Source: a bacterium | GTDB lineage: Bacteria > SZUA-182 > DTGQ01 | Assembly: GCA_040752695.1 (NCBI GenBank) | Contig: JBFMGO010000060.1 | Coordinates: 1-33,967 of the forward strand | Direction: 5' to 3' | Length of the DNA stretch: 33,967 bases | Shown here: positions 5,348-33,967 of the stretch, piece after piece | Layout: every line of letters starts with the position of its first letter | Numbering within the stretch: position 1 is the first letter of the stretch | The notes under the pieces: model-generated | Seen by the model: only the letters and a program-made list of their open reading frames with translations | Told to the model about the DNA's origin: nothing | Databases searched by the model: none | Program-made: the position numbers and the translations under genes

Positions 5348-6745
5348 ATGACCATTGATTTAGTAAATAGCCTTTTTTTTGTTAATATTATTTTTATTGG
5401 TTTTATTGGATTCGTTCTCCTTTTAAAATTCTGGGAATGGCTTCCCGTAATTCTCCTGCCCCTGATATGGTACCTGCCGTCATGGACATCGCCGGGCGGA
5501 CCGCTGGTGCATATTCGAATAATCAGGTGGTTCATGATTCTGATTATTCCTTTTCTGTATATCATTCAATTGGGAAGGAATATTAAATTCAGACAGCGTT
5601 TGGAGTTGACAATCATTGCCCGGCCTTTGCTTGCTCTTTCCTTCGTTGCAGTACTATCTGCCATGCTGAACGCCAGTGGGTTCATCAACATGTTGGGGTA
5701 TTTAGCCCTTTTCTTACAATACCCTTTATTTTTTGTTATATTAATGAATATCGAGTTATCAGATACTGTCGTTGTCTGGTTTATCAAGCTTTTTCTTTTC
5801 CTTACTTTCATCCAGGTCCCTGAAATAATTTTCCGGTATCTCACCATGGGCATAGTTGGAGATACGGTTTCTCTAACTCTCGGCATTTATGGACATTACA
5901 ATATAGGCATCTTTTCTCTCTATACCATAGCCCTGATTACTGCCCATTCCCTTACCGCAGGATTCAGCCCCTTATATATTATGGCCTGTCTGCTTCTTCT
6001 GCTTTGCTCCCTTATCGGTGAAATTAAAATTGTCGTTATCTCAGCGCCAGTTATTATTATCGTTATAGTTTTTCTCTTTTTGAATAAACAACTTTCTCAA
6101 GACCTTGATATAAGCAGATATGTGAATAAATTTATCATTGGCCTGCTGAGCATTGCTCTCCTTCTGCCCATTTATACCAGTTGGGGGAAGGTTCAATCAG
6201 GCCAGAGAAACAGCTTGGGCCGGTTCTTTGATAACATTTATGGTGTCATTTCAGGGACCAAACAATTTACAAGGAAACAGATTTACGACATTAACAGAAT
6301 CGGCGTATTTGTAGAAGTTTGGGACGTATTGAAAAATAACTCGATAAGGCTGCTGTTCGGGTATGGCCCTGGAAGTACTTTTGCCGGTAACTTTTTTGGT
6401 ACCCCCGGCCGTTTTTTTGCCGGAGTGATGAAACTGAAAGCAGCAGGGGGAAAAATGCTGCCTCAGATTCCCGCTACCTTGGGTGATGTTGGTTTCATCG
6501 GTTTACTTGTTTACTTCTGGATTTATGCCCTGCTTTTTAAATGTCTGGTATCGAGTTATTTACATGCCAAGGACAGATTTTACGAGATATTAATCCTCGG
6601 CTCATTCGGGATCTGGGTATTTTATGTAATATTGGGGCCTATTTATAACATAGTCTGGCGATCCGAAATGGCCTCATACCTTTTTTATTTCTTTATGGCT
6701 GTCGCCTGCAGGCAAAAAGCCCGTAGTGACGACGCCCAAGGATAA
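5348..6745 (+). CDS. Polytopic membrane protein, probable Wzy polymerase
   Basis: About 10-12 TM segments with a large loop near the C-terminus (LLFGYGPG...GDVGFIG); lies between the flippase and a GT. Confidence 0.65.
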   Translation: MTIDLVNSLFFVNIIFIGFIGFVLLLKFWEWLPVILLPLIWYLPSWTSPGGPLVHIRIIRWFMILIIPFLYIIQLGRNIKFRQRLELTIIARPLLALSFVAVLSAMLNASGFINMLGYLALFLQYPLFFVILMNIELSDTVVVWFIKLFLFLTFIQVPEIIFRYLTMGIVGDTVSLTLGIYGHYNIGIFSLYTIALITAHSLTAGFSPLYIMACLLLLLCSLIGEIKIVVISAPVIIIVIVFLFLNKQLSQDLDISRYVNKFIIGLLSIALLLPIYTSWGKVQSGQRNSLGRFFDNIYGVISGTKQFTRKQIYDINRIGVFVEVWDVLKNNSIRLLFGYGPGSTFAGNFFGTPGRFFAGVMKLKAAGGKMLPQIPATLGDVGFIGLLVYFWIYALLFKCLVSSYLHAKDRFYEILILGSFGIWVFYVILGPIYNIVWRSEMASYLFYFFMAVACRQKARSDDAQG

Positions 6746-9347: not shown

Positions 9348-9440
9348 ATGTCTTCAGTGAATTCATGGATAATAAAAATGAATGCAGGAGCATCAGAAGA
9401 TGTGGTCAAAAGGGCTGATGCTGCGGTATGGGAGGGATAA
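9348..9440 (+). CDS. Putative 30-aa small ORF (not in the ORF track): MSSVNSWIIKMNAGASEDVVKRADAAVWEG
   Basis: Strong SD AAGGAGG just upstream of ATG 9348; the ORF fills the gap exactly and its last codons contain the SD for ATG 9445. Confidence 0.5.
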   Translation: MSSVNSWIIKMNAGASEDVVKRADAAVWEG

Positions 9441-9444
9441 ATCT

Positions 9445-9912
9445 ATGGGTGTTACAAGTCGTGTATCTATCGATGAAGTCAACATTAGCGATACTACACC
9501 GTTACCGGCCAATCTGGTTACGACACTATCTTCAGAATACGACACTATCGATATCAGCAAAATGTCAAAAGGCGGGGTAGTGGTTGCTCACGATGCCATC
9601 GCAGCTACGGCTACCAGTTCTGAGATCGATTGCCGGGGATTTAATACGATCTCGGTTGAATGTACAGTATCGAACATCTCTTCTGGTAACTGGGTCATCG
9701 AGATTTTAGGTGTCGCCATGTCCGGCGGGACATTTGGAAATTGCTATGCTCCAAAGGATGACGGCACGTTTGTTCAACAAAAAACCCCAACACTCACTGC
9801 GAACGGTAATACGACCTACTACTTTCGCGGCATCCCCAATTACGTGAAAATAAAGGCTATAAGAACGACTGACGGGACGCTCACCTGCAAGGTGACTCCC
9901 ATGAACCTGTAG
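9445..9912 (+). CDS. Hypothetical Thr/Ser-rich beta protein
   Basis: In-frame ATG 9445 preceded by GGAGGGA is preferred to 9382. No recognisable catalytic motif. Confidence 0.6.
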   Translation: MGVTSRVSIDEVNISDTTPLPANLVTTLSSEYDTIDISKMSKGGVVVAHDAIAATATSSEIDCRGFNTISVECTVSNISSGNWVIEILGVAMSGGTFGNCYAPKDDGTFVQQKTPTLTANGNTTYYFRGIPNYVKIKAIRTTDGTLTCKVTPMNL

Positions 9913-9978: not shown

Positions 9979-10974
9979 ATGGAATGTGCTGTTATTACCA
10001 CCTACCGATGTAATGCTCGTTGCCAGATGTGTGATACCTGGCAATCACCCACTGTGAAGAGTGAAGAGTTTGACCCGGCTATTTTAGAAAAAATCCCCTG
10101 CGGGATGGTCCGTCTCAACATTACCGGCGGTGAGCCAATGTTGAGAGATGATATCCTCGACATTGCAGCCATCCTTGATAAAAAAACCGGACGATTAGAG
10201 ATCAGCACCAATGGCTATTTCACAGATCGTCTCGTCAGAGTATGTGAGCGGTTTCCCAATATTACTATCCGTGTAAGCGTTGAGGGTCTGCCAAAACTGA
10301 ATGATGAATTGCGGGGAATAAAAAACGGCTTTGACCATGCCCTGCGGACCATCCTGAAACTCAAAGCCATGGGTATACGGGATATCGGCTTTGGCATCGT
10401 GATCTCTGACCGCAATGTCTCGGACCTTCTGGAGTTGTATACCCTATGCTCCGGCATGGGGATAGAGTTCGGCAATGCTACCATGCACAACTCCTTCTAT
10501 TTTCATAAGTTCGATAATAAGATCGAAGATGTGGACAAAGCAGCGGCACAAATGCGGCGCTTTATCCATGCACTTCTGACCAGCAAAAGGAGCAGCCTGC
10601 GTATGCGGGTTAAGGACTGGGCCCGCGCTTATCTGAATCTGGGGACTATGAGGTACATGGAAGGTAAAGCCAGGTCCCTGTCGTGCGGGGCAGCAACGGA
10701 TACCTTTTTTGTTGATCCCTGGGGCATGATTATCGCCTGCAACGGATCGGCCGAGCCGTGGGTCATGGGTGATTTGAAGACACAATCATTTGATGAGATC
10801 TGGCACAGCACCCAGGCAGAAAGAGTCCGGCAGAAGGTGAAAGAGTGCAGGCGTAATTGCTGGATGACAGGCACCGCAGTGCCAGCCATGCGAAAGAATA
10901 TCTGGGTGCCGCTTCTGTGGATGCTTAAGAGCAAGGCTCACCTTGCTCTTGGTAAAGAGGTACTGTTCGAATGA
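9979..10974 (+). CDS. Radical SAM enzyme with a C-terminal SPASM/twitch domain
   Basis: CNARCQMC, ITGGEP, STNG; C-terminal CGAA...ACNG...CRRNCW. Confidence 0.9.
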   Translation: MECAVITTYRCNARCQMCDTWQSPTVKSEEFDPAILEKIPCGMVRLNITGGEPMLRDDILDIAAILDKKTGRLEISTNGYFTDRLVRVCERFPNITIRVSVEGLPKLNDELRGIKNGFDHALRTILKLKAMGIRDIGFGIVISDRNVSDLLELYTLCSGMGIEFGNATMHNSFYFHKFDNKIEDVDKAAAQMRRFIHALLTSKRSSLRMRVKDWARAYLNLGTMRYMEGKARSLSCGAATDTFFVDPWGMIIACNGSAEPWVMGDLKTQSFDEIWHSTQAERVRQKVKECRRNCWMTGTAVPAMRKNIWVPLLWMLKSKAHLALGKEVLFE

Positions 10975-19525: not shown

Positions 19526-20848
19526 ATGATTTCCACCCGATTGAATAGCCTTTTTGCACCCGACCTGGTTATTGAGCTCGCCCTTGTGCTCCTTTTAGTA
19601 TTCACCCCGCTGCCCAAGGGGACCTTTAGCGGATGGCCGGTGCTGGTGGTGCATGCCCTCAGCTTTGTCATGCTGATAAACTGGATTATCAAGATGAGAG
19701 GACAAAGATCACGGCCTGTACATAAAACACCAATTGATTTCCCTCTCATCTTCTTTTTCATTTTCGCTCTGCTCTCCTGTATCTTTTCATTGGATCACAC
19801 AAAGAGCATATCCGGGGTTTTGAAGGTCCTGGATTGTATTATTATATTCTACGTAGCTCAAGACACTCTCAATACCAGGAGAAAAATCAAAATCATCCTC
19901 TATGCGGCCATTCTTACCGGCAGCTTTCTTTCGCTACTCGGGCTTATTCAACTCCTTGACGGTATCGATCACTCCTTTTGGGTCTTACCAGTCGAATTAT
20001 CAGCCACGTTCGAAAATTCAAATTATTTTGCCGGATATATGGCTCTTATTATTCCCTTGACCATCGGCATATTATTTGACGAGTTGGAACCTGGACAGAG
20101 AATCATGGTCTTTTACCTTCTCATTATGATGATACTGGCTTTTATTTTATCCCTGTCACGTGGGGGATGGATAAGTTTAACGGTCGCTTTGGGAGCGATG
20201 AGTTTCCTGTTTTTCGGCAAGTCTGGTGTTAATAAAGAATTAGTGAATAGAAAGCTCCTGATTTTACTACCTTTCCTTTTAGCCGTTATCTTCATGCTTG
20301 CTATATGCCTGGGATTTACCAGTATCCTGGGCAAGATGGACAGCAGGAACTTTCATGGAAGGATAGAACTATGGAAACAATCTGTCGGAATTATCAGGGA
20401 TTACCCCTTTTTCGGCGCTGGGGTTGACGTATTTACCTCCTTTCATTCTGCTATTCCGGCAGGGTATAAGAGTATCGATCGTGATTACATGAGAAGTATT
20501 AAAAAGTGGATGCTTTCAAAATATAATGGATATGATGGATTGGAATTATGCAATCAATATCTTCAAACGGCTGCGGAAATGGGAATACCGGGTTTTTTCT
20601 GCCTTCTGTGGCTGATAGTTGAAGGTATTTCCGGAAGTGTAAAGGTGTATAACCGGAAAAAAAGCAGGTTCGAGCAAATGGTGTCTTTAAGCATTATCGG
20701 AGGCGAGATGGCGACGATAGTTCATATGCTCTCTTCCAACCTGTTGAACTTTTTGTCTATCAGTGTGTTACTATCGGTATTGATAGGAATTATCTTTGCT
20801 GAACACAGCTTGACAGCCAATGCCCATCCTGCATCTTTAGAGAATTAA
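19526..20848 (+). CDS. O-antigen ligase (Wzy_C/WaaL) family membrane protein
   Basis: Multi-TM; TFENSNYFAGY, LSLSRGGW, R..LW, PFFGAG and NQYLQTAAEMGIPG. Confidence 0.85.
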   Translation: MISTRLNSLFAPDLVIELALVLLLVFTPLPKGTFSGWPVLVVHALSFVMLINWIIKMRGQRSRPVHKTPIDFPLIFFFIFALLSCIFSLDHTKSISGVLKVLDCIIIFYVAQDTLNTRRKIKIILYAAILTGSFLSLLGLIQLLDGIDHSFWVLPVELSATFENSNYFAGYMALIIPLTIGILFDELEPGQRIMVFYLLIMMILAFILSLSRGGWISLTVALGAMSFLFFGKSGVNKELVNRKLLILLPFLLAVIFMLAICLGFTSILGKMDSRNFHGRIELWKQSVGIIRDYPFFGAGVDVFTSFHSAIPAGYKSIDRDYMRSIKKWMLSKYNGYDGLELCNQYLQTAAEMGIPGFFCLLWLIVEGISGSVKVYNRKKSRFEQMVSLSIIGGEMATIVHMLSSNLLNFLSISVLLSVLIGIIFAEHSLTANAHPASLEN

Positions 20849-24896: not shown

Positions 24897-26105
24897 GTGG
24901 CTGAAGAGGAAAAATTCTTTCTGGCCTGCTTACGCCACTTTCTAAAAGGGAAAGCAGACACATCAGAAGGGATTCTCAGTTACCTTGGGAAGGGGATTGA
25001 CTGGCCTCTCGTTCTCTCCTGGTCCCAATGGCATGGAGTCACTCCCGTAATCTATCATATCCTGAAGGAAATAGATTGGACCGGTGTGCCGGAGATGATC
25101 AGAAAGGGGCTGGAGCGGAGCTTTCGGATAAATATGGCCAGGAATCTCTTTCTCTCGGCAGAAATAGACAGGGTATTTGCGGCACTGGGAGAACGGGGAA
25201 TAATAAGTATTCCCATCAAGGGGATCTTTCTCTCAGAAGAAGTCTATCCGGACATATCCTTTCGGATGATAACCGATATCGATATTTTAATCCGTAAAGA
25301 CGATCTTCGGAGGGCAGAAGAAATACTGACACAGATGGGATATGAGAGGGATCAGCCTCTCAAGGATGCCTTTTTTCCAGACAATTGCTATACCCTGCAC
25401 ATGGAGAAAGGAGAAAAGAACGGTCAGAAGCTTTGCGTTGAACTGCATTGGGGCCTGGCGAACAGGCGAGACTATACACTTCCTGTAGAAAGCTGGTGGG
25501 AGAGGGAAATCTTTCGGGTTGCTCAGAACAGGCACTTAAAGGGTGGAATGCATTGCCTGACCATGGGACCGGAGATAACCCTGCTCTATCTGACTATCAA
25601 CGCTCATATGTCCCGCTACGCATTCCTTAAACAGCTAGTGGATATCGGGCAGGTGATCAGATACTACGAAAACGACATTCATTGGGAACGTGTGACACGT
25701 ATAGCCTCTGAATTGGGCCTGCTCGATAATTTCATTTTTGCCTTGAGTCTGGTTCACAGCATGTTCGATGTACCGATTGCCAAAGAGCTGGCTTATCAAT
25801 CAGCATCGTGGAAACACCGGGTATTCCAATCTCTCTTTACCGAACAGAGGCTGGTGCGGGGGAAAATGGGTCAGGATCTGCGCCAGCTTCTGTTGTTATT
25901 TTTGTTAAACGAGAAAGCAATCGTCAAGTCGGCCTGCAAAGTGATATTCTCCTCCCGGGAAACCATCGCTTACCGATATGGACTATCTCCTCAATCTTAC
26001 CGCACCAATCTTTATGTTCTCCTTAATCCTTTATTTGCCCTGTATCGCCTGCTTCGAGGATGTGTAGTGGATTGCTGGGCAGGAAAAGGAATTGGGGAAG
26101 GATAA
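24897..26105 (+). CDS. Uncharacterised nucleotidyltransferase (NTP_transf_5-like, the type found in RiPP clusters)
   Basis: W...HGV, PIKG, R...DIDILI, VELHW and LVDI motifs; GTG start. Confidence 0.8.
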   Translation: MAEEEKFFLACLRHFLKGKADTSEGILSYLGKGIDWPLVLSWSQWHGVTPVIYHILKEIDWTGVPEMIRKGLERSFRINMARNLFLSAEIDRVFAALGERGIISIPIKGIFLSEEVYPDISFRMITDIDILIRKDDLRRAEEILTQMGYERDQPLKDAFFPDNCYTLHMEKGEKNGQKLCVELHWGLANRRDYTLPVESWWEREIFRVAQNRHLKGGMHCLTMGPEITLLYLTINAHMSRYAFLKQLVDIGQVIRYYENDIHWERVTRIASELGLLDNFIFALSLVHSMFDVPIAKELAYQSASWKHRVFQSLFTEQRLVRGKMGQDLRQLLLLFLLNEKAIVKSACKVIFSSRETIAYRYGLSPQSYRTNLYVLLNPLFALYRLLRGCVVDCWAGKGIGEG

Positions 26106-26235
26106 AACGATTGTTGCCTGGCAGCCCGACAGCAGCTTTTTCATTAATTTGTTTAACATGAGGACATAAACTATGGCATTATGTTCGTATTTATAGTATA
26201 ATTTGGATGATTAACGATATTACTGTATTTTTTTA

Positions 26236-26264
26236 TTGAATCTAAATTCATATTAAAGTATAAT
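26236..26264 (+). promoter_or_regulatory. Sigma70-type promoter upstream of the PqqD/rSAM/precursor genes
   Basis: TTGAAT (26236-26241), 17-nt spacer, TATAAT (26259-26264) in an AT-rich intergenic region. Confidence 0.65.
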
Positions 26265-26303
26265 TTGAAGAAATATGGAGATTGTTCATCAGGAGATTTT
26301 TCC

Positions 26304-26612
26304 ATGACCGGAAAATACGTATCCAGAAATGAAAATACAGCATCAAGGGTAATTGACGGACAGGCAATTATCATGACTCTGGGAGACAACACCCTGCATA
26401 CCCTCAATGACGTAGGATCACGAATATGGAATCTTTGCGGCGACCAAAAGGCTATTGAAGAGATCATTACGGTGATCCACGAGGAATACGCTGCCAGTTA
26501 CGAGGAAATCAAAGCAGATTGTGAGTCCTTCATAGAGGAAATGTGCACGAAGGGAATTCTGACTCTGCAGGATGAAAAGGCTGTAGGGGAAGGATCGGGT
26601 GTAGGTAGATGA
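26304..26612 (+). CDS. PqqD family / RiPP recognition element protein
   Basis: RVIDGQAII, LHTLNDVGSRIWNLCG, EEI...EEY and D...FIEEM...GIL. AGGAGA precedes ATG 26304. Confidence 0.9.
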   Translation: MTGKYVSRNENTASRVIDGQAIIMTLGDNTLHTLNDVGSRIWNLCGDQKAIEEIITVIHEEYAASYEEIKADCESFIEEMCTKGILTLQDEKAVGEGSGVGR

Positions 26613-27667
26613 ATATCGTAGCTTATAGCCTGGAGAATAAGATTCCCATTGCTGTCCAGGTTAATGTAACCAGACAATGTAATCTTCATTGTATTCACTG
26701 CTGTGTAGGAAAGAGAGAAAAATCAAAAAGGAGTGGAAAAGAGACTGTTGCCGTTCCAGCACCTGGCTCTGAACTGACTCTACAGGAAATTCATCAGCTT
26801 CTTGAGCAACTGGCTCGGTCAGGATGCCTCCTCCTGACCCTGTCTGGAGGTGAAGTATTACTTCGAGAAGATCTCTATGAAATTATCGACTCTGCTCGCA
26901 GATTGGACTTTGCCGTTAAGGTTTTCACCAATGGGACACTTTTGGGGAAAAAAGAGGCTGAAACGTTTCGTAAGTTTCATCTCCAGGAAGTGCATATCAG
27001 TTTATATGCAGCCGAGGCTCGAATACATGACATGATCAGTGGTGTTTCCGGTTCATGGCAAAAGACCATGGAAGGAATCCGGTTTCTTAAGCAAGAGGGT
27101 GTTCCAGTCAAGATAAAATGCGCTATCATGAAACAGAATCTTGGAGAGTATCGAAAAGTATATGACCTAGCCGTGAGCCTTGGAACCGATTATGCCTTTG
27201 ATCCCATTATCACAGTTCGGGATGATGGGAATCGCGATCCGCTGAAGCACCGAATAGATCAGGAAGATTTACACACGGTTTTGCATGATCCGATTTTCCG
27301 GAATAAGGGGTCTGAAACAGGTGAGAAAAATGCATGCCTCCTCAGTGATATAATCGAAGAGATCCCCTGCAGTGCCGGTCATTATATCTGCTTCGTTTCT
27401 CCGGAAGGAGATGTCACCCCGTGCGTTCAATTGCCTGTTGTCTGCGGAAATGTACGAGAGCAAGACTTTTATTGGGTATGGCAACATTCACCGCAAATGC
27501 AGAAAATCCGTCAGTACCAGATAAAAGATATTCATGGTTGCAGTGACTGTCGTCACTTATCCTGGTGTGCCCGGTGCCCTGGTTTAGCCTATCTTGAGGA
27601 TGGCGATCTTTTGGGTCCTTCCAGTGCTGCCTGCTGGATGACTGAGGCAAGAGGAGAGAATGAGTGA
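26609..27667 (+). CDS. Radical SAM/SPASM peptide maturase
   Basis: CNLHCIHC, SGGE, FTNG; SPASM motif CSAG...C...GDVTPC...CSDC...CARCPG...C; 4-nt overlap with the PqqD gene. Confidence 0.92.
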   Translation: MNIVAYSLENKIPIAVQVNVTRQCNLHCIHCCVGKREKSKRSGKETVAVPAPGSELTLQEIHQLLEQLARSGCLLLTLSGGEVLLREDLYEIIDSARRLDFAVKVFTNGTLLGKKEAETFRKFHLQEVHISLYAAEARIHDMISGVSGSWQKTMEGIRFLKQEGVPVKIKCAIMKQNLGEYRKVYDLAVSLGTDYAFDPIITVRDDGNRDPLKHRIDQEDLHTVLHDPIFRNKGSETGEKNACLLSDIIEEIPCSAGHYICFVSPEGDVTPCVQLPVVCGNVREQDFYWVWQHSPQMQKIRQYQIKDIHGCSDCRHLSWCARCPGLAYLEDGDLLGPSSAACWMTEARGENE

Positions 27668-27759
27668 CACTATCAGACATCGTAAACGGACCAAGCATTT
27701 ATCATCAAGAGTTTTAGTACATCTTTCCAATAACCCAAACAGCTAAGGAGGAAAAAAAT

Positions 27760-27924
27760 ATGGAAAGAAAGAAAATATTAATCGAGAAAGCACCAGCCCC
27801 AAAAAGCTATGAACCACCAAGAATCATTTCTGAAGAAGTATTTGAGACACTCGCTCTTGCATGCTGCAAAAGCAATACCTGCTTACGATATAGTCTGCCA
27901 AAGGGACTGCATGGTGTAAGCTAA
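27760..27924 (+). CDS. Putative RiPP precursor peptide, 54 aa (not in the ORF track): MERKKILIEKAPAPKSYEPPRIISEEVFETLALACCKSNTCLRYSLPKGLHGVS
   Basis: Strong SD TAAGGAGG upstream of ATG 27760; YxxPxI leader motif; CCxxxxC core; directly downstream of the RRE and rSAM genes. Confidence 0.85.
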   Translation: MERKKILIEKAPAPKSYEPPRIISEEVFETLALACCKSNTCLRYSLPKGLHGVS

Positions 27925-28033
27925 CATCTCAAAGTTGTATCTTTAAAACTCATATCCCTCTTTTAAACGTAAGGTGCCGGAAATTTTCCATCAGCACATC
28001 GATGGGCACCGGGTAAGTCGTGTAATATAAAGC

Positions 28034-28349
28034 AGAGTAGTCATATTTCGTATTGCTAAGGTAAGCATTGTGCCCCACTCCGAGAGTGATTAAAAGGAAT
28101 GCCTGGATAATGATGTCCCCTCAGAGGGCAGGACTATGAGTTGTATAATCGGCTCCCATACGGCTCTCGCAAGAATTAAGTGCACGCAGAGACATCCTTA
28201 TGACGTCTTGCCAACTGCCAATCTTCATAGGTAGGTAGGTTACGGATTTTACTGCAAATTCCCTGGACAGTATTCAGTAGACAGTCAAGGGCGGACTATT
28301 CACCCTATAAGCGGGCAAAAAGGTTACCTCCAGGGAGTATGGCTACTCT
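28034..28349 (+). ncRNA. Candidate ~316-nt structured RNA of unknown family
   Basis: A 16-bp terminal helix (13 Watson-Crick + 3 G-U pairs) encloses nested helices and several hairpins; no ORF of 60 aa or more here in the track. Confidence 0.4.
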
Positions 28350-28509
28350 CACTTGCTTGAGCCAGCTTGATAGGCCATGCTGATACTCATAGATAGAATA
28401 AAACCTTGGTCCTCTCTCATCCATCTTCTGTACCCTATTATTTGGTAATCCTAAAAAACCGGTTTACAGCATATTTAAAATTTTTTCTAAACCCTGCCTT
28501 TGAGCCATA

Positions 28510-31500
28510 GTGAGGAAGAAGAAAATGAAAAATATGTCATTTAAAATCCTTACATCAGTGTTGTTTGGATTATTATTCAGCCTATCCTTACCCATAGGAT
28601 ATGTGACCAATGCCTACTCCCAGCAGGCCTATGTAATAGAAGATATTTCATATGACCCTGTAACTCAAATTTATACTTATACCTACACCCTCAAGAATCT
28701 TGGGAAAAAAAAGGTGTGGTGGTGGGGCATATGGTACTCTGAAGACCCCAAAGCCATCCTCGATGACTCCACTATTGATGCGAATGGCTTCGCACCTACT
28801 GACCTGACTGATTGCAGCACCGGATGGAAATCAACAGCACCGCCAAGACGTATGGGCTATTATCTGTATAACGGTCCTAATGGAGAACCGGGCTTTTATT
28901 CCACCTATACCAGTGACTTTCAATCAGCGAATGAACCGATCACTCCCGATGCTCTTAACTTGACCAAGATTGGAGGTCAGTGGGGATGGAATGGTGAGGG
29001 TGCCAATATCCTGACTGCTTACGGCGTCCAAAACGGAGATGACGGTTATTACGTAATAAGATCCAAAAAATATTTTCCGGAAAACAAGAAATTCTTTTAT
29101 AATACGAACGACTATTGGAACTCATCTTTCGATGCCAAAACTGGCCAGCTTGTCATCAAGGGATTTGAATTCGTCTCTACCACCCAACGCTCTTACAGCA
29201 TCCGTACATCCCTGGCTCAAGGATATAATCTTATATCACAGCCAGTTGCAGAGTTACTTACCCCGGATCTTTCCATTATTTCCTACCAGGCATCTTCTCT
29301 TTTAAGCACCATACCAGGATGCCAGAAGATTATCGGATTCGATCCACTGTCACAAACGACAGAAAGTTATCTTTTCTGGAATGGCACCCCGTACGGAGAT
29401 GACTTTCCGATTATTCCCGGTGAGGCCTACTATGCTGAGGTATCTGAAGCTACTTCCTTTAACTTCGATGGCCTGATAGCTCAGGCACCAAGTACCCTGA
29501 ACTTAAGCCAGGGTTACAATTTCGTTTCCTTCATCTACGGACCCAAGATGCCTGATGATGCCAGAACAGGTTATACCTCAGCTACCCTTCTGACAGCGCT
29601 TCCAGGGTGTAAATCCGTTATCCGGTTTAATTCCCTTTCACAAAAAACCGAGTCCTACCGCTCCTGGGCCGGATATGCACTGGGAACAGAGTTCGATATT
29701 CGTGTCGGAGAAGGATATATGGTTGAGGTCTTAAACGATGTTACCTGGACACCTGAGAAACTTTCCCTGTCAACAGTGCGTTCCAGATTGGGTGATGAAT
29801 ATCCCTCCTATAGCCTGACCTCTTCTAATCTCTCCACACCGGTTATCTCGGATATCAGGGAATCATATCAGACTGCCGGATCTGTAACCATATCCTGGCT
29901 GACCGATATCGATTGCCAGGGGGAAGTCCACTATAGCACGGACATGGGTCTTGCGGATTATGCTGTCGTAAAGGACAGCCGCACAGGGAAAATCCACCGA
30001 GTGGAACTGAATGGTTTACAACCGGGAAGACTCTGTTACTATGAAGTTCAGTCAGGGGCAACCAGAGACGACAATAACGGGTACTTCTATCGGTATACTC
30101 CTTTGCAGCCATCCTCACCGCTTGATAATCTTTTCATCGGTGGGCGTGTTCTCAGGGCAGACGAAAGCCCGGTGTCCGGGGGACTGGTGTTTATAACTAC
30201 GAGCCACGATGGAGTTAACTCCTATCCTCTGTCTACCGTGACTGACAAAAACGGGATCTGGGTTTTAAACCTTGCCGATCTTAAAGACTCGGTAGGCGGA
30301 GATTCATTGCAAAAGAGTCTGAATGATCCGATCTCCATTGAAGTTAATGGTGGAGGGGGGTGGCAAAGTGAAGAGATGATAATCTCCGACCTGACTGAAG
30401 AGGAGGGCTATATCCTGATCCTGAACGCTTCTGCACTCCCGCCGGTTACTCCCCTGGTTGTTGCTACCCCCGTTTTGTCGCCAGCATTTGAAGCTTTCAG
30501 AATCTCAATACGCGTTACCATCACCTGTAATACCGAAGGAGCTGTCATCCGCTACACTACGAATGGAAATGATCCAACCGAACAATCAACTGCCTACACC
30601 GGTCCCCTGGTCGTGACAACTGATACCACGGTCAAGGCCAAGGGTTTTAAGAGTGGCTATACCCCAAGTGATACCGCATCCGGAACCTATTCAAAGGTAA
30701 AAGAATCAGTAGCCACACCAATCATTTCTCCGGTATCAGGAGCCTTTGCCGATTCAATACGGGTAGAGATTTCCTGCAGTACTCAAGGGGCTACTATCCA
30801 CTATACCAAAGATGGGAGTGAACCGACAGCAAACTCCCTGGTCTACACCACTCCCCTGATCTTAAACAGAACCACGACTATCAAGGCGAAAGGGTTTAAG
30901 AATGGCTATTCCCCAAGCGATACTGCAAGCGAGACCTTTACCAGGATGGGCAAAGTTGATACCCCGGTCCTTTCTCCCATATCTTACACCTTTTCCGATA
31001 CCATCAACGTTTCCATCCGGTGTGCCACCCAAGGAACCGTCATTCACTACACTATGGATGGAAGTGAACCAACCGAAAATTCACCCGTCTATACTGCTCC
31101 CCTGATGGTAGCGAAGAGCACCACGATCAAGGCCAAGGCTTATAAGAACGGCTTTACCCCAAGCGATACCACAAACGGAACCTATACCGCCAAAGTTTCC
31201 ACACCTACCCTCTCACCGGCACCCCGCACTTTCTCTGATCCGATAGCTGTTACCATAAGCTGCGCCTCCCCAGACGCCGTTATCTGCTATACAACGGATG
31301 GAAGTGAACCAACCGAAAATTCACCCGTCTATGCTGCTTCCCTGACCCTTACCGAGACCGCTACAGTCAAGGCGAAAGGTTTCAAGAGCGGCTTCACCCC
31401 GAGTGAGACCGCAAGCGGGACCTATACGAGGATAAAAGCAAAAGTATCCACTCCTATCCTCTTCCCGGCACCTGGACCTTTTGCTCACTCAATCATCGTT

Positions 31501-32139
31501 TCGATAAGCTGTAATACGCAAGGGGCCGATATCCACTATACGATGGATGGAAGCGAACCAACCACAACCTCACCAATCTATACCGCTCCTTTGTCTCTGA
31601 CCGATAAGACCACGATCAAGGCCAAAGGATTTAAGAGTGATTGGGACCCAAGCGATACAACCAGCGGGACCTATACAAAAATCATGGAGAAAGTCGCTAC
31701 ACCTGTTCTTTCTCCCTCCTCTGGCACCTTTGCCAACTCAATGACCGTTACCATAAGCTGTGCTACCAAAGGAGCCGATATCCGCTATACCACAGATGGA
31801 AGCGAACCTGATGAACAATCTTCCGCCTATACATCTCCCCTGATCATGACAAAGACCAGCACACTTAAGGTAAAAGGATTCAAGAGCGGCTTTACCCCAA
31901 GTGATACTACGCGTGGGAAATATATCAAGGAAGCATCCAGGCAACCAATCTCCACCACGAATCCCTTACCATGGACTGTACCATCTCTGCCTTCTTATCA
32001 ACCTTGGTCTAATAGTTCTACTCCAACCTGGCAGACATATCAATCCTCATCATCATGGTCTTCCTTTGACTGGACGGGCTATCAATCCGCAGCTAATCCC
32101 TATCTTGGGAATTATCAAATATTTACTTCAGGTTTCTAG
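28510..32139 (+). CDS. Large secreted multidomain protein with a Fn3-like domain and six chitobiase/beta-hexosaminidase C-terminal (Fn3-associated) repeats
   Basis: Signal peptide (basic N-terminus, hydrophobic core, AYS), two LxQGYNxxS repeats, a VTISWLTD...HRVELNGLQPG Fn3-like unit, six VxTPxxxP...YTxDGSEP...IKAKGFK-type units and an S/W/Y/Q/P-rich tail. The start could be ATG 28525 or 28534. Confidence 0.8.
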   Translation: MRKKKMKNMSFKILTSVLFGLLFSLSLPIGYVTNAYSQQAYVIEDISYDPVTQIYTYTYTLKNLGKKKVWWWGIWYSEDPKAILDDSTIDANGFAPTDLTDCSTGWKSTAPPRRMGYYLYNGPNGEPGFYSTYTSDFQSANEPITPDALNLTKIGGQWGWNGEGANILTAYGVQNGDDGYYVIRSKKYFPENKKFFYNTNDYWNSSFDAKTGQLVIKGFEFVSTTQRSYSIRTSLAQGYNLISQPVAELLTPDLSIISYQASSLLSTIPGCQKIIGFDPLSQTTESYLFWNGTPYGDDFPIIPGEAYYAEVSEATSFNFDGLIAQAPSTLNLSQGYNFVSFIYGPKMPDDARTGYTSATLLTALPGCKSVIRFNSLSQKTESYRSWAGYALGTEFDIRVGEGYMVEVLNDVTWTPEKLSLSTVRSRLGDEYPSYSLTSSNLSTPVISDIRESYQTAGSVTISWLTDIDCQGEVHYSTDMGLADYAVVKDSRTGKIHRVELNGLQPGRLCYYEVQSGATRDDNNGYFYRYTPLQPSSPLDNLFIGGRVLRADESPVSGGLVFITTSHDGVNSYPLSTVTDKNGIWVLNLADLKDSVGGDSLQKSLNDPISIEVNGGGGWQSEEMIISDLTEEEGYILILNASALPPVTPLVVATPVLSPAFEAFRISIRVTITCNTEGAVIRYTTNGNDPTEQSTAYTGPLVVTTDTTVKAKGFKSGYTPSDTASGTYSKVKESVATPIISPVSGAFADSIRVEISCSTQGATIHYTKDGSEPTANSLVYTTPLILNRTTTIKAKGFKNGYSPSDTASETFTRMGKVDTPVLSPISYTFSDTINVSIRCATQGTVIHYTMDGSEPTENSPVYTAPLMVAKSTTIKAKAYKNGFTPSDTTNGTYTAKVSTPTLSPAPRTFSDPIAVTISCASPDAVICYTTDGSEPTENSPVYAASLTLTETATVKAKGFKSGFTPSETASGTYTRIKAKVSTPILFPAPGPFAHSIIVSISCNTQGADIHYTMDGSEPTTTSPIYTAPLSLTDKTTIKAKGFKSDWDPSDTTSGTYTKIMEKVATPVLSPSSGTFANSMTVTISCATKGADIRYTTDGSEPDEQSSAYTSPLIMTKTSTLKVKGFKSGFTPSDTTRGKYIKEASRQPISTTNPLPWTVPSLPSYQPWSNSSTPTWQTYQSSSSWSSFDWTGYQSAANPYLGNYQIFTSGF
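30460..31930 (+). repeat. Six intragenic tandem repeats of ~240-250 bp
   Basis: Six homologous ~82-aa units; an identical 37-bp block at 31056-31092 and 31296-31332. Confidence 0.9.
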
Positions 32140-32198
32140 GACATTTTAAGACTTTTTGACCTAGTAGGTGTGTTTACGTTCTTCTCTTCTTCCCTAAA

Positions 32199-32227
32199 GA
32201 CTCCTCTCCTGCTCAAGGAGAGGGGTC
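32199..32227. terminator. Stem-loop downstream of the large protein gene (terminator-like or REP-like)
   Basis: gactcctctcct-gctca-aggagaggggtc: 12 bp with one G-U pair, extendable by flanking pyrimidine and purine tracts. Confidence 0.5.
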
Positions 32228-32301
32228 AGGAAGAGGAGGAGGAAAAGGAAAAATGAAACGGTACGAAAATGTGAAGAGAGACGATAGTAGGTGGTAATAG
32301 T

Positions 32302-33162
32302 ATGAAAAATTTTCAAATTGAGATCGGTGGCATTCCGGTTTTAATCAAATCCGATGAGTCAAGGTTTATGCAGCTTATCGCTGAAAAGTATCAAGCGTTT
32401 GCCTCGCCTTGCGCCCAGATACCGGAAAAGGATTCTTTGACGATTTCCCCTCCAGCTCAAGCTGCTTTTATCCAACTGTACATGGACATCCGATCAAAGG
32501 AAAAGGAAGAGGGAAAATGGGATACACTAATCGAAGAAAAATTATGGATAGATGTTTCTTATCATAACAACCGATTTTTAATCCGCAGGCCGGATCTGGA
32601 GGCAGAAGTTAATCTAAACAACATGACTGCCCGCGTTACCAACAGGGCTGCAATCTATAGTTTTGATTCCTTTTTACGGATTCTCTATTCTTTGATTCTT
32701 GTTCAAGAAGGGGGTTTTCTTCTGCATGCAGCATCAGTAGTGAGAGATGGACAAGGTTATGTGTTTATGGGAAAATCAGGGGCGGGGAAATCTACTCTTG
32801 CCGCTCACTGCCCGGAGCAATCGGTTTTAAGTGATGAGATTTCCCTGGTCAGGAAGGTCGAGTCAAAGTATATTCTCTACAGTACTCCCTTTTGGGGGGA
32901 ACAGGAAATTAAGGGTGGAAATTTTTGTTTTCCCCTCAAGGGAATTTACCAACTGAAACAAAGCCCCCGACTGCATTCCAGAAAACTGACGGCACGGGAT
33001 GCTCTCAGCAGGCTGATGGGAAATATCTTATATTTTAGCCGGGAACAATTCCTGACCAGGCAATTATTCCAAAATTGCTATGACTTCATTCAACATATGA
33101 CAATTTATGAGCTTGAATTTCAAAAAAATACTTCTTTTTGGGACGTCATCGATGAGAGATAA
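32302..33162 (+). CDS. HPr kinase-related P-loop protein (RiPP-associated kinase type)
   Basis: LLHAASV, Walker A MGKSGAGKST, VLSDE and STPFWGE; lacks the N-terminal domain of canonical HprK. Confidence 0.8.
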   Translation: MKNFQIEIGGIPVLIKSDESRFMQLIAEKYQAFASPCAQIPEKDSLTISPPAQAAFIQLYMDIRSKEKEEGKWDTLIEEKLWIDVSYHNNRFLIRRPDLEAEVNLNNMTARVTNRAAIYSFDSFLRILYSLILVQEGGFLLHAASVVRDGQGYVFMGKSGAGKSTLAAHCPEQSVLSDEISLVRKVESKYILYSTPFWGEQEIKGGNFCFPLKGIYQLKQSPRLHSRKLTARDALSRLMGNILYFSREQFLTRQLFQNCYDFIQHMTIYELEFQKNTSFWDVIDER

Positions 33163-33177
33163 AAAAAACTTGATCCC

Positions 33178-33765
33178 TCAGTGGCCCTTCAGATTCAAAA
33201 AAGAGCACAAAAAATACAGAATGCACCAAAATCCTCTGTGCCCTATCTTATAGATAAGCTCCAGCCTCTGGTTATCTCTTCCCTCTTCTATAAAGGTATA
33301 AATCATTCCAACTGTCTTATAAAACCTTAATAGTTTTCGATTTCGTCTTTGCCAAGGACCAGGCTGCAACCTTTGAAAAATTTCCGGATGGCCTTCAATA
33401 TCCATTACTATGCCTACGATCTCTTCCGGATAACATACCTTGGGAAAGTAATCGTTGTCTCCCTTTTCCCAAAAGGAAAGCTGGCCTTTAAGGAAAAATC
33501 TGGCTACGATTCGGTGAATGATTAAGACATGCTGTTGTGCTGCCTCTGAGGGTGAAAATCTGTGATCAGAGGATGCAAATTTGCAAGAAGAAAAAGGCTT
33601 TTTTTTCTTGAAAATGACGATTCTGCCGATCTGGAGGTCACAGCCGGCATCAAAATCTGTCCAGACTTTGGCTAGCAGGGATTGTCCATCGGGAAATACT
33701 CCATCCATGCTATTTCCCTTGATATTGACTTTCCAGGTATCAATATTCGCCATTATGAAATGCAA
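33178..33765 (-). CDS. S24/S26 signal-peptidase-like protein
   Basis: IKGNSM...DG (catalytic Ser), IIHRIV and EKGDN, matching the Ser-His SipW/Sec11-like pattern; no N-terminal TM anchor. Confidence 0.72.
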   Translation of the reverse strand: MHFIMANIDTWKVNIKGNSMDGVFPDGQSLLAKVWTDFDAGCDLQIGRIVIFKKKKPFSSCKFASSDHRFSPSEAAQQHVLIIHRIVARFFLKGQLSFWEKGDNDYFPKVCYPEEIVGIVMDIEGHPEIFQRLQPGPWQRRNRKLLRFYKTVGMIYTFIEEGRDNQRLELIYKIGHRGFWCILYFLCSFLNLKGH

Positions 33766-33887: not shown

Positions 33888-33967
33888 TCTCGGCGGCGAC
33901 CTACTCTCCCACATTGAGATAATGCAGTACCATCGGCGCAGAAGAGCTTAACTGCCGTGTTCGGAAT
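33888..33967 (-). rRNA. rrf: 5S rRNA, 3' portion (truncated by the window end)
   Basis: The reverse complement reads ATTCCGAACACGGCAGTTAAGCTCTTCTGCGCCGATGGTACTGC...GTGGGAGAGTAGGTCGCCGCCGAG, a canonical 5S sequence. Confidence 0.96.

Follow-up and report, generated by a model that had tools for sequence, protein, structure and literature searches.

The cassette at positions 24,897-33,765 of the DNA stretch analysed here is interpreted as a gene cluster for a peptide made by the ribosome and modified after translation (RiPP), working like the linear polyphosphorylated peptide (LPP) pathway of Bacillota, with an extra step catalysed by a radical S-adenosylmethionine (rSAM) enzyme; the probability of this interpretation is put at about 0.55. 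The stretch, referred to as the window, is the whole 33,967-nucleotide contig JBFMGO010000060.1 of a draft genome of 6.05 Mb from an uncultivated environmental bacterium (GCA_040752695.1; 239 contigs, 48% G+C, 96.6% complete). A look-up of sequencing runs for 24897-33765 returned none. The cassette encodes a PF14907 nucleotidyltransferase-fold protein, a PqqD-type RiPP recognition element (RRE), an rSAM/SPASM protein, a 54-residue precursor peptide, an HPr-kinase-like protein and an S26-like peptidase. What was observed directly comprises these genes with their catalytic motifs, the conservation of the peptide and the repeated occurrence of the cassette in other genomes; every chemical step proposed below is inferred. 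All six genes had been listed in the initial annotation, and open reading frame (ORF) calls with Pfam and NCBIfam scans found each of them in place; its description of a non-lasso, RRE-dependent rSAM system that includes the kinase and PF14907 genes of paeninodin-type lasso clusters is supported. The lack of a lasso cyclase in the window, as it had claimed, was also borne out. The window ORFs gave no Asn_synthase match, the seven PF00733 matches of the genome all lie on other contigs, and PF13471 (lasso B2) had no match anywhere in this 96.6%-complete genome.

The precursor gene (27760-27924, + strand) is preceded by a Shine-Dalgarno sequence, AAGGAGG (27745-27751, +), read from the sequence 8 nt before the ATG. 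The leader carries the motifs Y17-x-x-P20 and F28-E29-T30, and the predicted core of 24 residues, LALACCKSNTCLRYSLPKGLHGVS, contains three Cys and ends in the C-terminal Ser54. Ten distinct sequences, namely that of the window, two database homologues and seven copies from related genomes, all conform to ...SEEVFETLAL[AS]CCK...H[GA]VS and all terminate in Val-Ser. In a comparison of eight copies, third codon positions account for 548 of the 863 nucleotide differences, and the differing codon pairs are synonymous in 434 cases versus 237 non-synonymous ones. The 54-codon ORF is thus a real gene, beyond chance, as evident from the strong ribosome-binding site, the third-position bias and the homologues ending in Val-Ser. 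A reading of the 'ALAC' stretch as the lipobox of a lipoprotein was dropped, the leader being hydrophilic and without the h-region of a signal peptide.

Conservation of the peptide was followed through relatives of the kinase-like protein, which were found in 297 stretches of species-representative genomes; all locus counts given here refer to the best 80 of these 297. An alignment of 63 precursors displays invariant Y17, P20, E25, F28, T30, A32, C35, K37 and S54. When the loci were searched with a motif that is silent on the C-terminus, [YWF]xxP-x(4-14)-[FY][EV]T-x-[AS][LM]-x-C, 70 peptides were recovered in 69 of the 80 loci, and all 70 end in Ser. The cores of these 70 peptides measure 20-24 residues, with invariant Ala at +2, Cys at +5 and Lys at +7, and a second Cys stands 8 residues from the C-terminus in 64 peptides. 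No Ser/Thr position other than the terminal Ser is universal among the 70, and position +3 of the core is occupied by Leu in 69 and by Met in one. Ten loci yielded no precursor with the loosest motif (L031, L036, L038, L045, L048, L051, L057, L062, L073 and L105). A profile of the 63 precursors, searched against 1.84 billion representative proteins, matched 900 of them at E ≤ 1e-3 and 356 at E ≤ 1e-10, and Ser is the last residue in 149 of the best 150 of the 900 matches. Candidate precursors beside more distant cassettes (genomes G009, G016, G026 and G033) likewise end in Ser. The initial annotation had let its reading stand or fall with conservation of the terminal Ser, and the invariance of that residue came out in its favour.

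The genomes named most often below are that of the window (G000), two congeners (G001 and G002) and representatives of two other families of the same order (G005 and G007). In G005, three copies of the precursor occur on three contigs (L021:2308-2493, L121:~480-645 and L122:~744-905); all three end in GLHGVS, and only one of them adjoins the enzymes.

The discrete PqqD-type RRE (26265-26612, +; PF05402, E 5e-15) is read from a TTG at 26265, with the likely start at an ATG at 26304 giving 102 residues. Its best NCBIfam match is lasso_PqqD_Bac, the lasso-type PqqD chaperone (E 7.5e-10, below cut-off), and its PDB matches are TbiB1 (5v1u, 1e-7) followed by LppB (9x8z_B, 3.5e-7). The start of the rSAM gene (26609-27667, +) overlaps the stop of the RRE gene, an arrangement of translational coupling. 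The rSAM/SPASM protein, a predicted peptide maturase of 352 residues (PF04055 and PF13186), displays the CX3CX2C motif (C24/C28/C31) and seven SPASM Cys, kept in at least 95% of 69 aligned sequences. The closest solved sequence is that of the thioether synthase (sactisynthase) SkfB (6efn, E 6e-13), and no NCBIfam cut-off is reached.

The kinase-like protein (32302-33162, +; 286 residues) is assigned to the HPr-kinase-like P-loop kinases of the PEPCK fold on weak NCBIfam matches, motifs and a fold model. The matches are to ScmC (E 9e-12), HprK_rel_B (5e-8) and HprK_rel_A (9e-8), all below cut-off, and to a PEPCK P-loop. The motifs H142-A143, G157-x-S-G-x-G-K163-x-T165 and D178-E179 are invariant in 29 sequences. 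Furthermore, the AlphaFold2 (AF2) model has a pLDDT of 89.7 and is matched by Foldseek to PEPCK-fold kinases at E 7e-8. The gene is present as a single copy in the genome. A database search gave 678 relatives at E ≤ 1e-3, all carrying the precomputed Pfam label PF27840.

Convergent with the kinase gene lies that of a predicted leader peptidase (33178-33765, - strand), a soluble S26-type serine peptidase of 195 residues resembling archaeal/ER-type signal peptidases. TIGR02228 is its only family match (E 2.4e-6, 27.5 bits vs a cut-off of 51.85). The motifs G-x-S19-M, H84-R and G-D103-x-D105 are invariant in an alignment of 34 sequences, and no transmembrane (TM) segment is predicted. The AF2 model (pLDDT 78) finds SEC11 (7p2q_A), SpsB and LexA/UmuD as top Foldseek matches at E 0.016-0.1, and a PDB search by sequence gave no meaningful match. 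The profile seeded from this protein matched only one of the 80 loci; the S24/S26-like copies of Acidobacteriota were recognised by clustering, by Pfam/NCBIfam spot checks and by alignment, and such an ORF stands directly upstream of the kinase gene in 49 loci. A predicted complex of peptidase, RRE and precursor scored 0.59, vs 0.77 for a control with the peptidase replaced, and was not used as evidence. In the window's clade, the peptidases carry a conserved hydrophobic tail at their C-terminus, GFW..L/F.F.CS.F.LKG (residues ~168-190), which the Acidobacteriota copies do not have and which may serve for contact with the membrane or a partner.

The PF14907 (NTP_transf_5) protein of 402 residues (24897-26105, +; Pfam E 8e-53) is the counterpart of PsmN and LppN. 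Residues K108, G109, D127, D129 and E182 are each retained by 90% or more of the 38 homologues aligned, and D127-x-D129 belongs to the motif class whose double mutation, D134A D136A, is described as inactivating PsmN (PMC6993621). Its orthologues in G001 and G002 are 63-64% identical, and no meaningful match was found by sequence in the PDB. PF14907 is also named in open-access literature on phosphonate biosynthesis.

The cassette recurs well beyond the window. Within the 80 loci, PqqD genes were found in 79, rSAM/SPASM genes in 77, PF14907 in 38 and Wzy_C in 10. The hosts are mostly Acidobacteriota/Terriglobia, with single representatives of Binatia, Baltobacteraceae, Limnocylindrales and Proteobacteria, and three are recorded merely as 'Pseudomonadota bacterium' or 'bacterium'. 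The usual order in Acidobacteriota is secreted protein, precursor, S24/S26-like peptidase, kinase, PqqD and rSAM, at times followed by PF14907. Across 61 related genomes, a strong match to the precursor profile occurs in seven, all of which also carry the kinase-like gene; 13 have only more distant kinase-like genes, and 41 have neither, apart from two weak peptide matches. The co-distribution with the precursor that had been expected for both tailoring genes therefore holds for the kinase (7/7 genomes with a strong precursor match) and only in part for PF14907, which accompanies 38 of the 80 loci. A Bryobacterales-type subgroup (L031, L045, L048, L051 and L057) has the order kinase, (PqqD), rSAM, PF14907 and a long Wzy_C gene (700-870 residues), with TPR proteins and an S8/kumamolisin-like protease; the motifs used detected no precursor there.

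The following pathway is proposed. The PqqD-type RRE would bind the YxxP motif of the 54-residue precursor, as suggested by its homology to lasso B1 proteins and LppB. The rSAM/SPASM enzyme would then modify the 24-residue core, thioether cross-links from the conserved Cys being the most likely outcome. The HPr-kinase-like enzyme would phosphorylate the invariant Ser54 in the manner of PadeK/PsmK-type kinases, and the soluble signal-peptidase-like enzyme, together with the RRE, would cut after Phe-Glu-Thr30 like LppS, as its catalytic residues and the leader motif suggest. Finally, the PF14907 protein may add a sugar or another group to the phosphate, comparable to PsmN in pseudomycoidin; this is the weakest step of the scheme.

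The closest published system is LPP, a non-lasso pathway of Bacillota demonstrated experimentally by Popov et al. (Nat Commun 2026; PMC13381572) for the lppA-K-B-S-D-N genes of Paenibacillus alginolyticus. According to that account, the LPP leaders follow the consensus YxxPxVLxHQxIxFETxxS and are cut after Thr by LppS with the help of LppB; cutting needs F-3, E-2 and T-1, and the catalytic residues are S29/H68/D93. LppK polyphosphorylates Ser3 of the core, LppN is inactive in the heterologous host, the end product and function of LPP are given as unknown, and the clusters, often found within capsule loci, are termed 'restricted to the Bacillota' (PMC13381572). The initial annotation had regarded related gene sets as defined only bioinformatically, which no longer holds after this report. 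Since LPP has been published, a non-lasso system with lasso-type tailoring beside a polysaccharide locus is an already known kind.

The likeness between the window cassette and LPP extends to the discrete RRE, for which LppB is the second-best PDB match, the HprK-like kinase, the PF14907 transferase and the lack of a lasso cyclase. Both have a YxxP and Phe-Glu-Thr leader motif and a location inside a polysaccharide locus, and the LPP leader peptidase, of the archaeal signal-peptidase-I-like type with Ser/His/Asp residues, has a predicted counterpart here with the invariant S19, H84 and D103/D105. The two also differ. YxxP and FET stand 2 residues closer together in the window and the H-Q pair is replaced by E-E; the LPP product is linear, whereas the window cassette includes an rSAM/SPASM gene, as do 77 of 80 related loci. 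The window family has no Ser at core +3, the site of LppK, and its short, conserved core spans 20-25 residues, in which Cys, Lys and the terminal Ser do not vary, whereas the C-termini of LPP are variable. Moreover, an MsbA-like exporter was not found among the scanned window ORFs, and the hosts of the window family lie outside Bacillota.

The words 'radical' and 'SPASM' are absent from the main text of PMC13381572. The header row of its Supplementary Data 2, which covers 199 peptidase neighbourhoods, names Radical_SAM, TIGR04545, BBP2_2, NAD_synthase, Sulfotransfer_1, HEAT_2 and Rubrerythrin; such domains also occur around the present cassette, so that the LPP data set may already contain a locus of the rSAM type. 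The window cassette falls in a much larger, putative sister group of LPP in other phyla, with 900 representative precursor clusters (50% identity) and the kinase in 297 species genomes. The invariant Cys, Lys and terminal Ser offer exact and cheap predictions for mass spectrometry, and the recurrent adjacency to polysaccharide genes in several unrelated lineages is a concrete lead on the role of phosphorylated peptides.

Other known systems share fewer features. The paeninodin (PadeK) and pseudomycoidin (PsmK/PsmN) lasso clusters resemble the cassette in the YxxP leader with a PqqD-type RRE, the HprK-family kinase, the C-terminal Ser and PF14907; action of the kinase on the terminal Ser and a PsmN-dependent hexose on the phosphate are described for such kinase-tailored lasso peptides (PMC6993621). 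The window differs from them in having no macrolactam synthetase, the genome in having no PF13471 match, and the cassette in encoding an S26-like predicted leader peptidase and an rSAM enzyme. The SynChlorMet and HprK-related A/B sets, which are database models only (TIGR04248-04251, TIGR04352 and TIGR04355), also combine an HprK-like protein, a PqqD relative and rSAM/SPASM, and for the window's kinase-like protein the Scm models rank first or near the top of the NCBIfam matches. However, the scores stay far below the cut-offs (ScmC 44.9/125 bits, ScmD 20/100, ScmE 107.9/400, ScmF 86.4/400 and HprK_rel_A 31.6/200), and one rSAM gene in the window cassette stands against the ScmE and ScmF pair. 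No paper on SynChlorMet was found in the open-access literature searched, nor one joining HPr kinase, PqqD, radical SAM and nucleotidyltransferase, or HPr kinase and SPASM. With sactipeptides and ranthipeptides the cassette shares an RRE-dependent rSAM enzyme with CX3CX2C and the full SPASM Cys set, a Cys-containing core and the match to SkfB, although the sequence similarity of the window's rSAM enzyme is weak. Neither a kinase nor an S26-like peptidase nor a PF14907 gene is known as a part of these two classes.

Several points weigh against the LPP-like interpretation. None of the cassette proteins, whether from the window or from Acidobacteriota, reaches a curated NCBIfam cut-off; the S26-like protein of the window has no Pfam match, and its match to the signal-peptidase fold is weak (E 0.016). 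No ABC_membrane or ABC_tran domain of an exporter was detected among the scanned window ORFs, and the cluster stops at an rRNA operon. LppK, the only characterised non-lasso kinase, acts on Ser3 of its core, a position held by Leu in this window; since core +3 is Leu in 69 and Met in one of the 70 peptides, the site of phosphorylation must differ from that of LppK. This site is the main uncertainty of the pathway, and the invariant terminal Ser could instead serve the rSAM chemistry. A PF14907 gene stands no more than 10 kb from the kinase gene in only 38 of the 80 loci. The homologues in G005 and G007 share only 31% identity with the window's protein, as compared to 54-64% for the other cassette proteins, and four further PF14907 matches occur in the genome outside any cassette, one adjoining a Polysacc_synt_2 gene. 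The gene may belong to the sugar locus rather than to the cassette.

This last doubt leads to a reading in which the product is a free peptide of the LPP type, the adjacency to the sugar locus has no chemical meaning, and PF14907 is the last gene of the polysaccharide operon and does not act on the peptide. The spacing of the genes agrees with it, as PF14907 begins 58 bp after the transaldolase gene, the last sugar gene, and is separated from PqqD by 160 bp with two promoter-like sites, although a promoter and terminator scan of the window found such sites no more often than in shuffled sequence; the four PF14907 matches elsewhere and the 31% identity in G005 and G007 fit as well. Against this, PF14907 does accompany the kinase within 10 kb in 38 loci, often directly after rSAM in the gene orders listed, and it is described both as a core LPP gene (PMC13381572) and as a lasso tailoring gene (PMC6993621), so that this reading is considered unlikely. 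A quite improbable and opposite view makes the adjacency chemically meaningful. In it, the kinase would phosphorylate the terminal Ser and the PF14907 protein would activate or extend the phosphate through a nucleoside diphosphate-type or sugar-phosphate intermediate; a phosphodiester would then connect the cross-linked peptide with a sugar of the adjacent heptose-type polysaccharide, or a Wzy_C-domain ligase would attach the peptide via its terminal Ser. The same kinase/nucleotidyltransferase logic is used to add phosphocholine-type decorations. In favour of such a conjugate, the cassette adjoins polysaccharide genes in all five assessable genomes of the order (G000, G001, G002, G005 and G007), and in G005 and G007 it adjoins PF14907, Wzy_C and Bac_transf genes in differing orders, that of G005 being PF14907, Wzy_C, PqqD, rSAM, precursor and kinase. 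Wzy_C-like genes also occur near the distant cassettes of G016 and G026, there with sugar genes, of a Bryobacterales group and of one Proteobacteria record, and among the 80 loci Wzy_C is confined to those with PF14907 (10/38 vs 0/42, the related genomes not being independent). Within the window, the 440-residue Wzy_C protein is accompanied by a second protein, with 12 TM segments, which could act as polymerase. Wzy_C is described in all known O-oligosaccharyltransferases, of which TfpO/TfpM (420-470 residues) glycosylate a C-terminal Ser/Thr (PMC9829042), and the LPP clusters of Bacilli are embedded in capsule loci, with LppN inactive in the absence of further partners (PMC13381572). However, no polysaccharide genes could be detected close to most Acidobacteriota cassettes, and the Wzy_C gene is not kept even within the genus, being fragmentary in G001 and not found between the flanking genes in G002 with the query used. 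A peptide exporter is lacking and no transferase for the coupling was identified; the adjacency is possibly mere co-regulation, and the behaviour of PF14907 noted above counts here too. The expectation that these clusters sit beside polysaccharide loci thus stands for the window's lineage and some others and fails as a general rule in Acidobacteriota (Wzy_C in 10 of the 80 loci); only certain lineages show the polysaccharide link, and in view of this evidence attachment to a glycan is kept as the boldest reading and not as the main one. If the terminal phosphoserine did act as a handle for a sugar or glycan, this would represent a novel way of joining ribosomal peptides to polymers of the cell surface. 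The product would be a peptide-decorated or peptide-primed polysaccharide, which would also explain the presence of LPP and paeninodin clusters of Bacilli in capsule loci and the inactivity of LppN when expressed alone.

Two further alternatives move away from phosphorylation or from a peptide acting on its own. The terminal Ser may be conserved for the rSAM enzyme; the kinase-fold protein would then act on a different substrate or as a scaffold, with release of a small, cofactor-like molecule. MftC, for instance, acts on the C-terminal Val-Tyr of mycofactocin, and one Acidobacteriota copy of the rSAM enzyme has the mycofactocin maturase as its best NCBIfam match over its full length (E 1.5e-44, below cut-off). 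The peptide is conserved over its whole length with a fixed core of 20-25 residues, a pattern more usual in precursors of cofactors than in antibiotics, and no dedicated exporter is consistently present. This possibility is nonetheless very unlikely, as the kinase-like gene anchors every locus with invariant P-loop and HA/DE motifs, the invariant Cys point to cross-linking within the core, and phosphorylation of a C-terminal Ser by this class of kinases has a published precedent (PMC6993621). Alternatively, the matured peptide could be a subunit, ligand or maturation factor of the exported protein encoded nearby. A cross-linked small subunit is known from quinohemoprotein amine dehydrogenase. 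The precursor is directly followed by a secreted protein in G000, G001, G002 and G007, and 61 Acidobacteriota loci encode, at most 9 kb from the kinase gene, an unrelated secreted protein without a Pfam family, usually before precursor and peptidase in the gene orders listed. Such a partnership is rated as remote, since the two secreted families are not detectably homologous (hhalign 1.9%), the window type is missing beside the cassette in G004 and G005, and its family counts nine proteins vs 900 representative clusters for the peptide. The LPP-like pathway with an rSAM step accordingly remains the preferred reading.

The secreted protein of the window (28510-32139, +; 1209 residues, probable start at the ATG at 28525) is encoded between the precursor and the kinase and had not been named in the initial annotation. 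It consists of a signal peptide, an N-terminal domain of ~235 residues and six CHB_HEX_C/Fn3_assoc repeats (Pfam). The N-terminal domain is lineage-specific, with a family of nine database proteins, and no usable match to it was found in the ESM Atlas; the G007 copy shares only these first ~235 residues, and in G004 and G005 no such gene separates the precursor from the kinase. It is treated as a variable passenger and not as a core gene of the cassette. The remainder of the protein varies across the family, CHB_HEX_C repeats in the window being replaced by other sequence elsewhere, and three of the nine proteins share one locus-tag prefix, so that one assembly may hold three paralogues. The secreted protein of the 61 Acidobacteriota loci is Gly/Thr/Ser-rich, 600-1000 residues long and without Pfam or NCBIfam family (e.g. 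L032:6088-9066 and L035:7511-9289), and is usually encoded just upstream of the precursor. Homology between the two types was rejected on the hhalign probability given above.

The large sugar cluster that had been placed directly before the cassette is present as a polysaccharide locus of ~23 co-oriented genes (221-24839, +). It encodes an NAD-synthase-like protein, a WbuX-like amidotransferase, a sulfotransferase, a Wzx flippase, a 12-TM protein without family, two GT4 glycosyltransferases, a deacetylase, a second rSAM/SPASM protein, a Bac_transf priming transferase, a DegT aminotransferase and a Wzy_C-domain protein. A heptose-type set within the same interval (+ strand) is made up of a GHMP kinase, a sugar-phosphate nucleotidyltransferase, a GmhB-like phosphatase, an SIS isomerase and a transaldolase. 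The whole 34-kb arrangement, including the polysaccharide locus, is syntenic in G001 and G002. Besides Wzx, the polytopic proteins are the familyless 12-TM protein adjoining it (5348-6745) and the Wzy_C protein (19526-20848), so that one of them could be the polymerase and the other the ligase. Before the second rSAM/SPASM gene (9979-10974; 86-87% identity in G001 and G002) comes an ORF without family that is rich in Ser/Thr and up to 176 residues long (9382-9912; 78-80% identity over 135 residues in the same genomes), and no PqqD gene lies beside this pair.

At the right end of the window, a 5S rRNA gene (33888-33967, -; Rfam RF00001, 45.3 bits vs a gathering score of 38), truncated where the contig stops, sets the boundary of the cluster, which thus ends at an rRNA operon. 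In G002, the region beyond the peptidase gene is likewise without long ORFs; this stretch (L014:1-9200) is gene-poor, with small ORFs recurring every ~5.6 kb, a spacing that would fit tandem rRNA operons and match the terminal 5S gene of the window.

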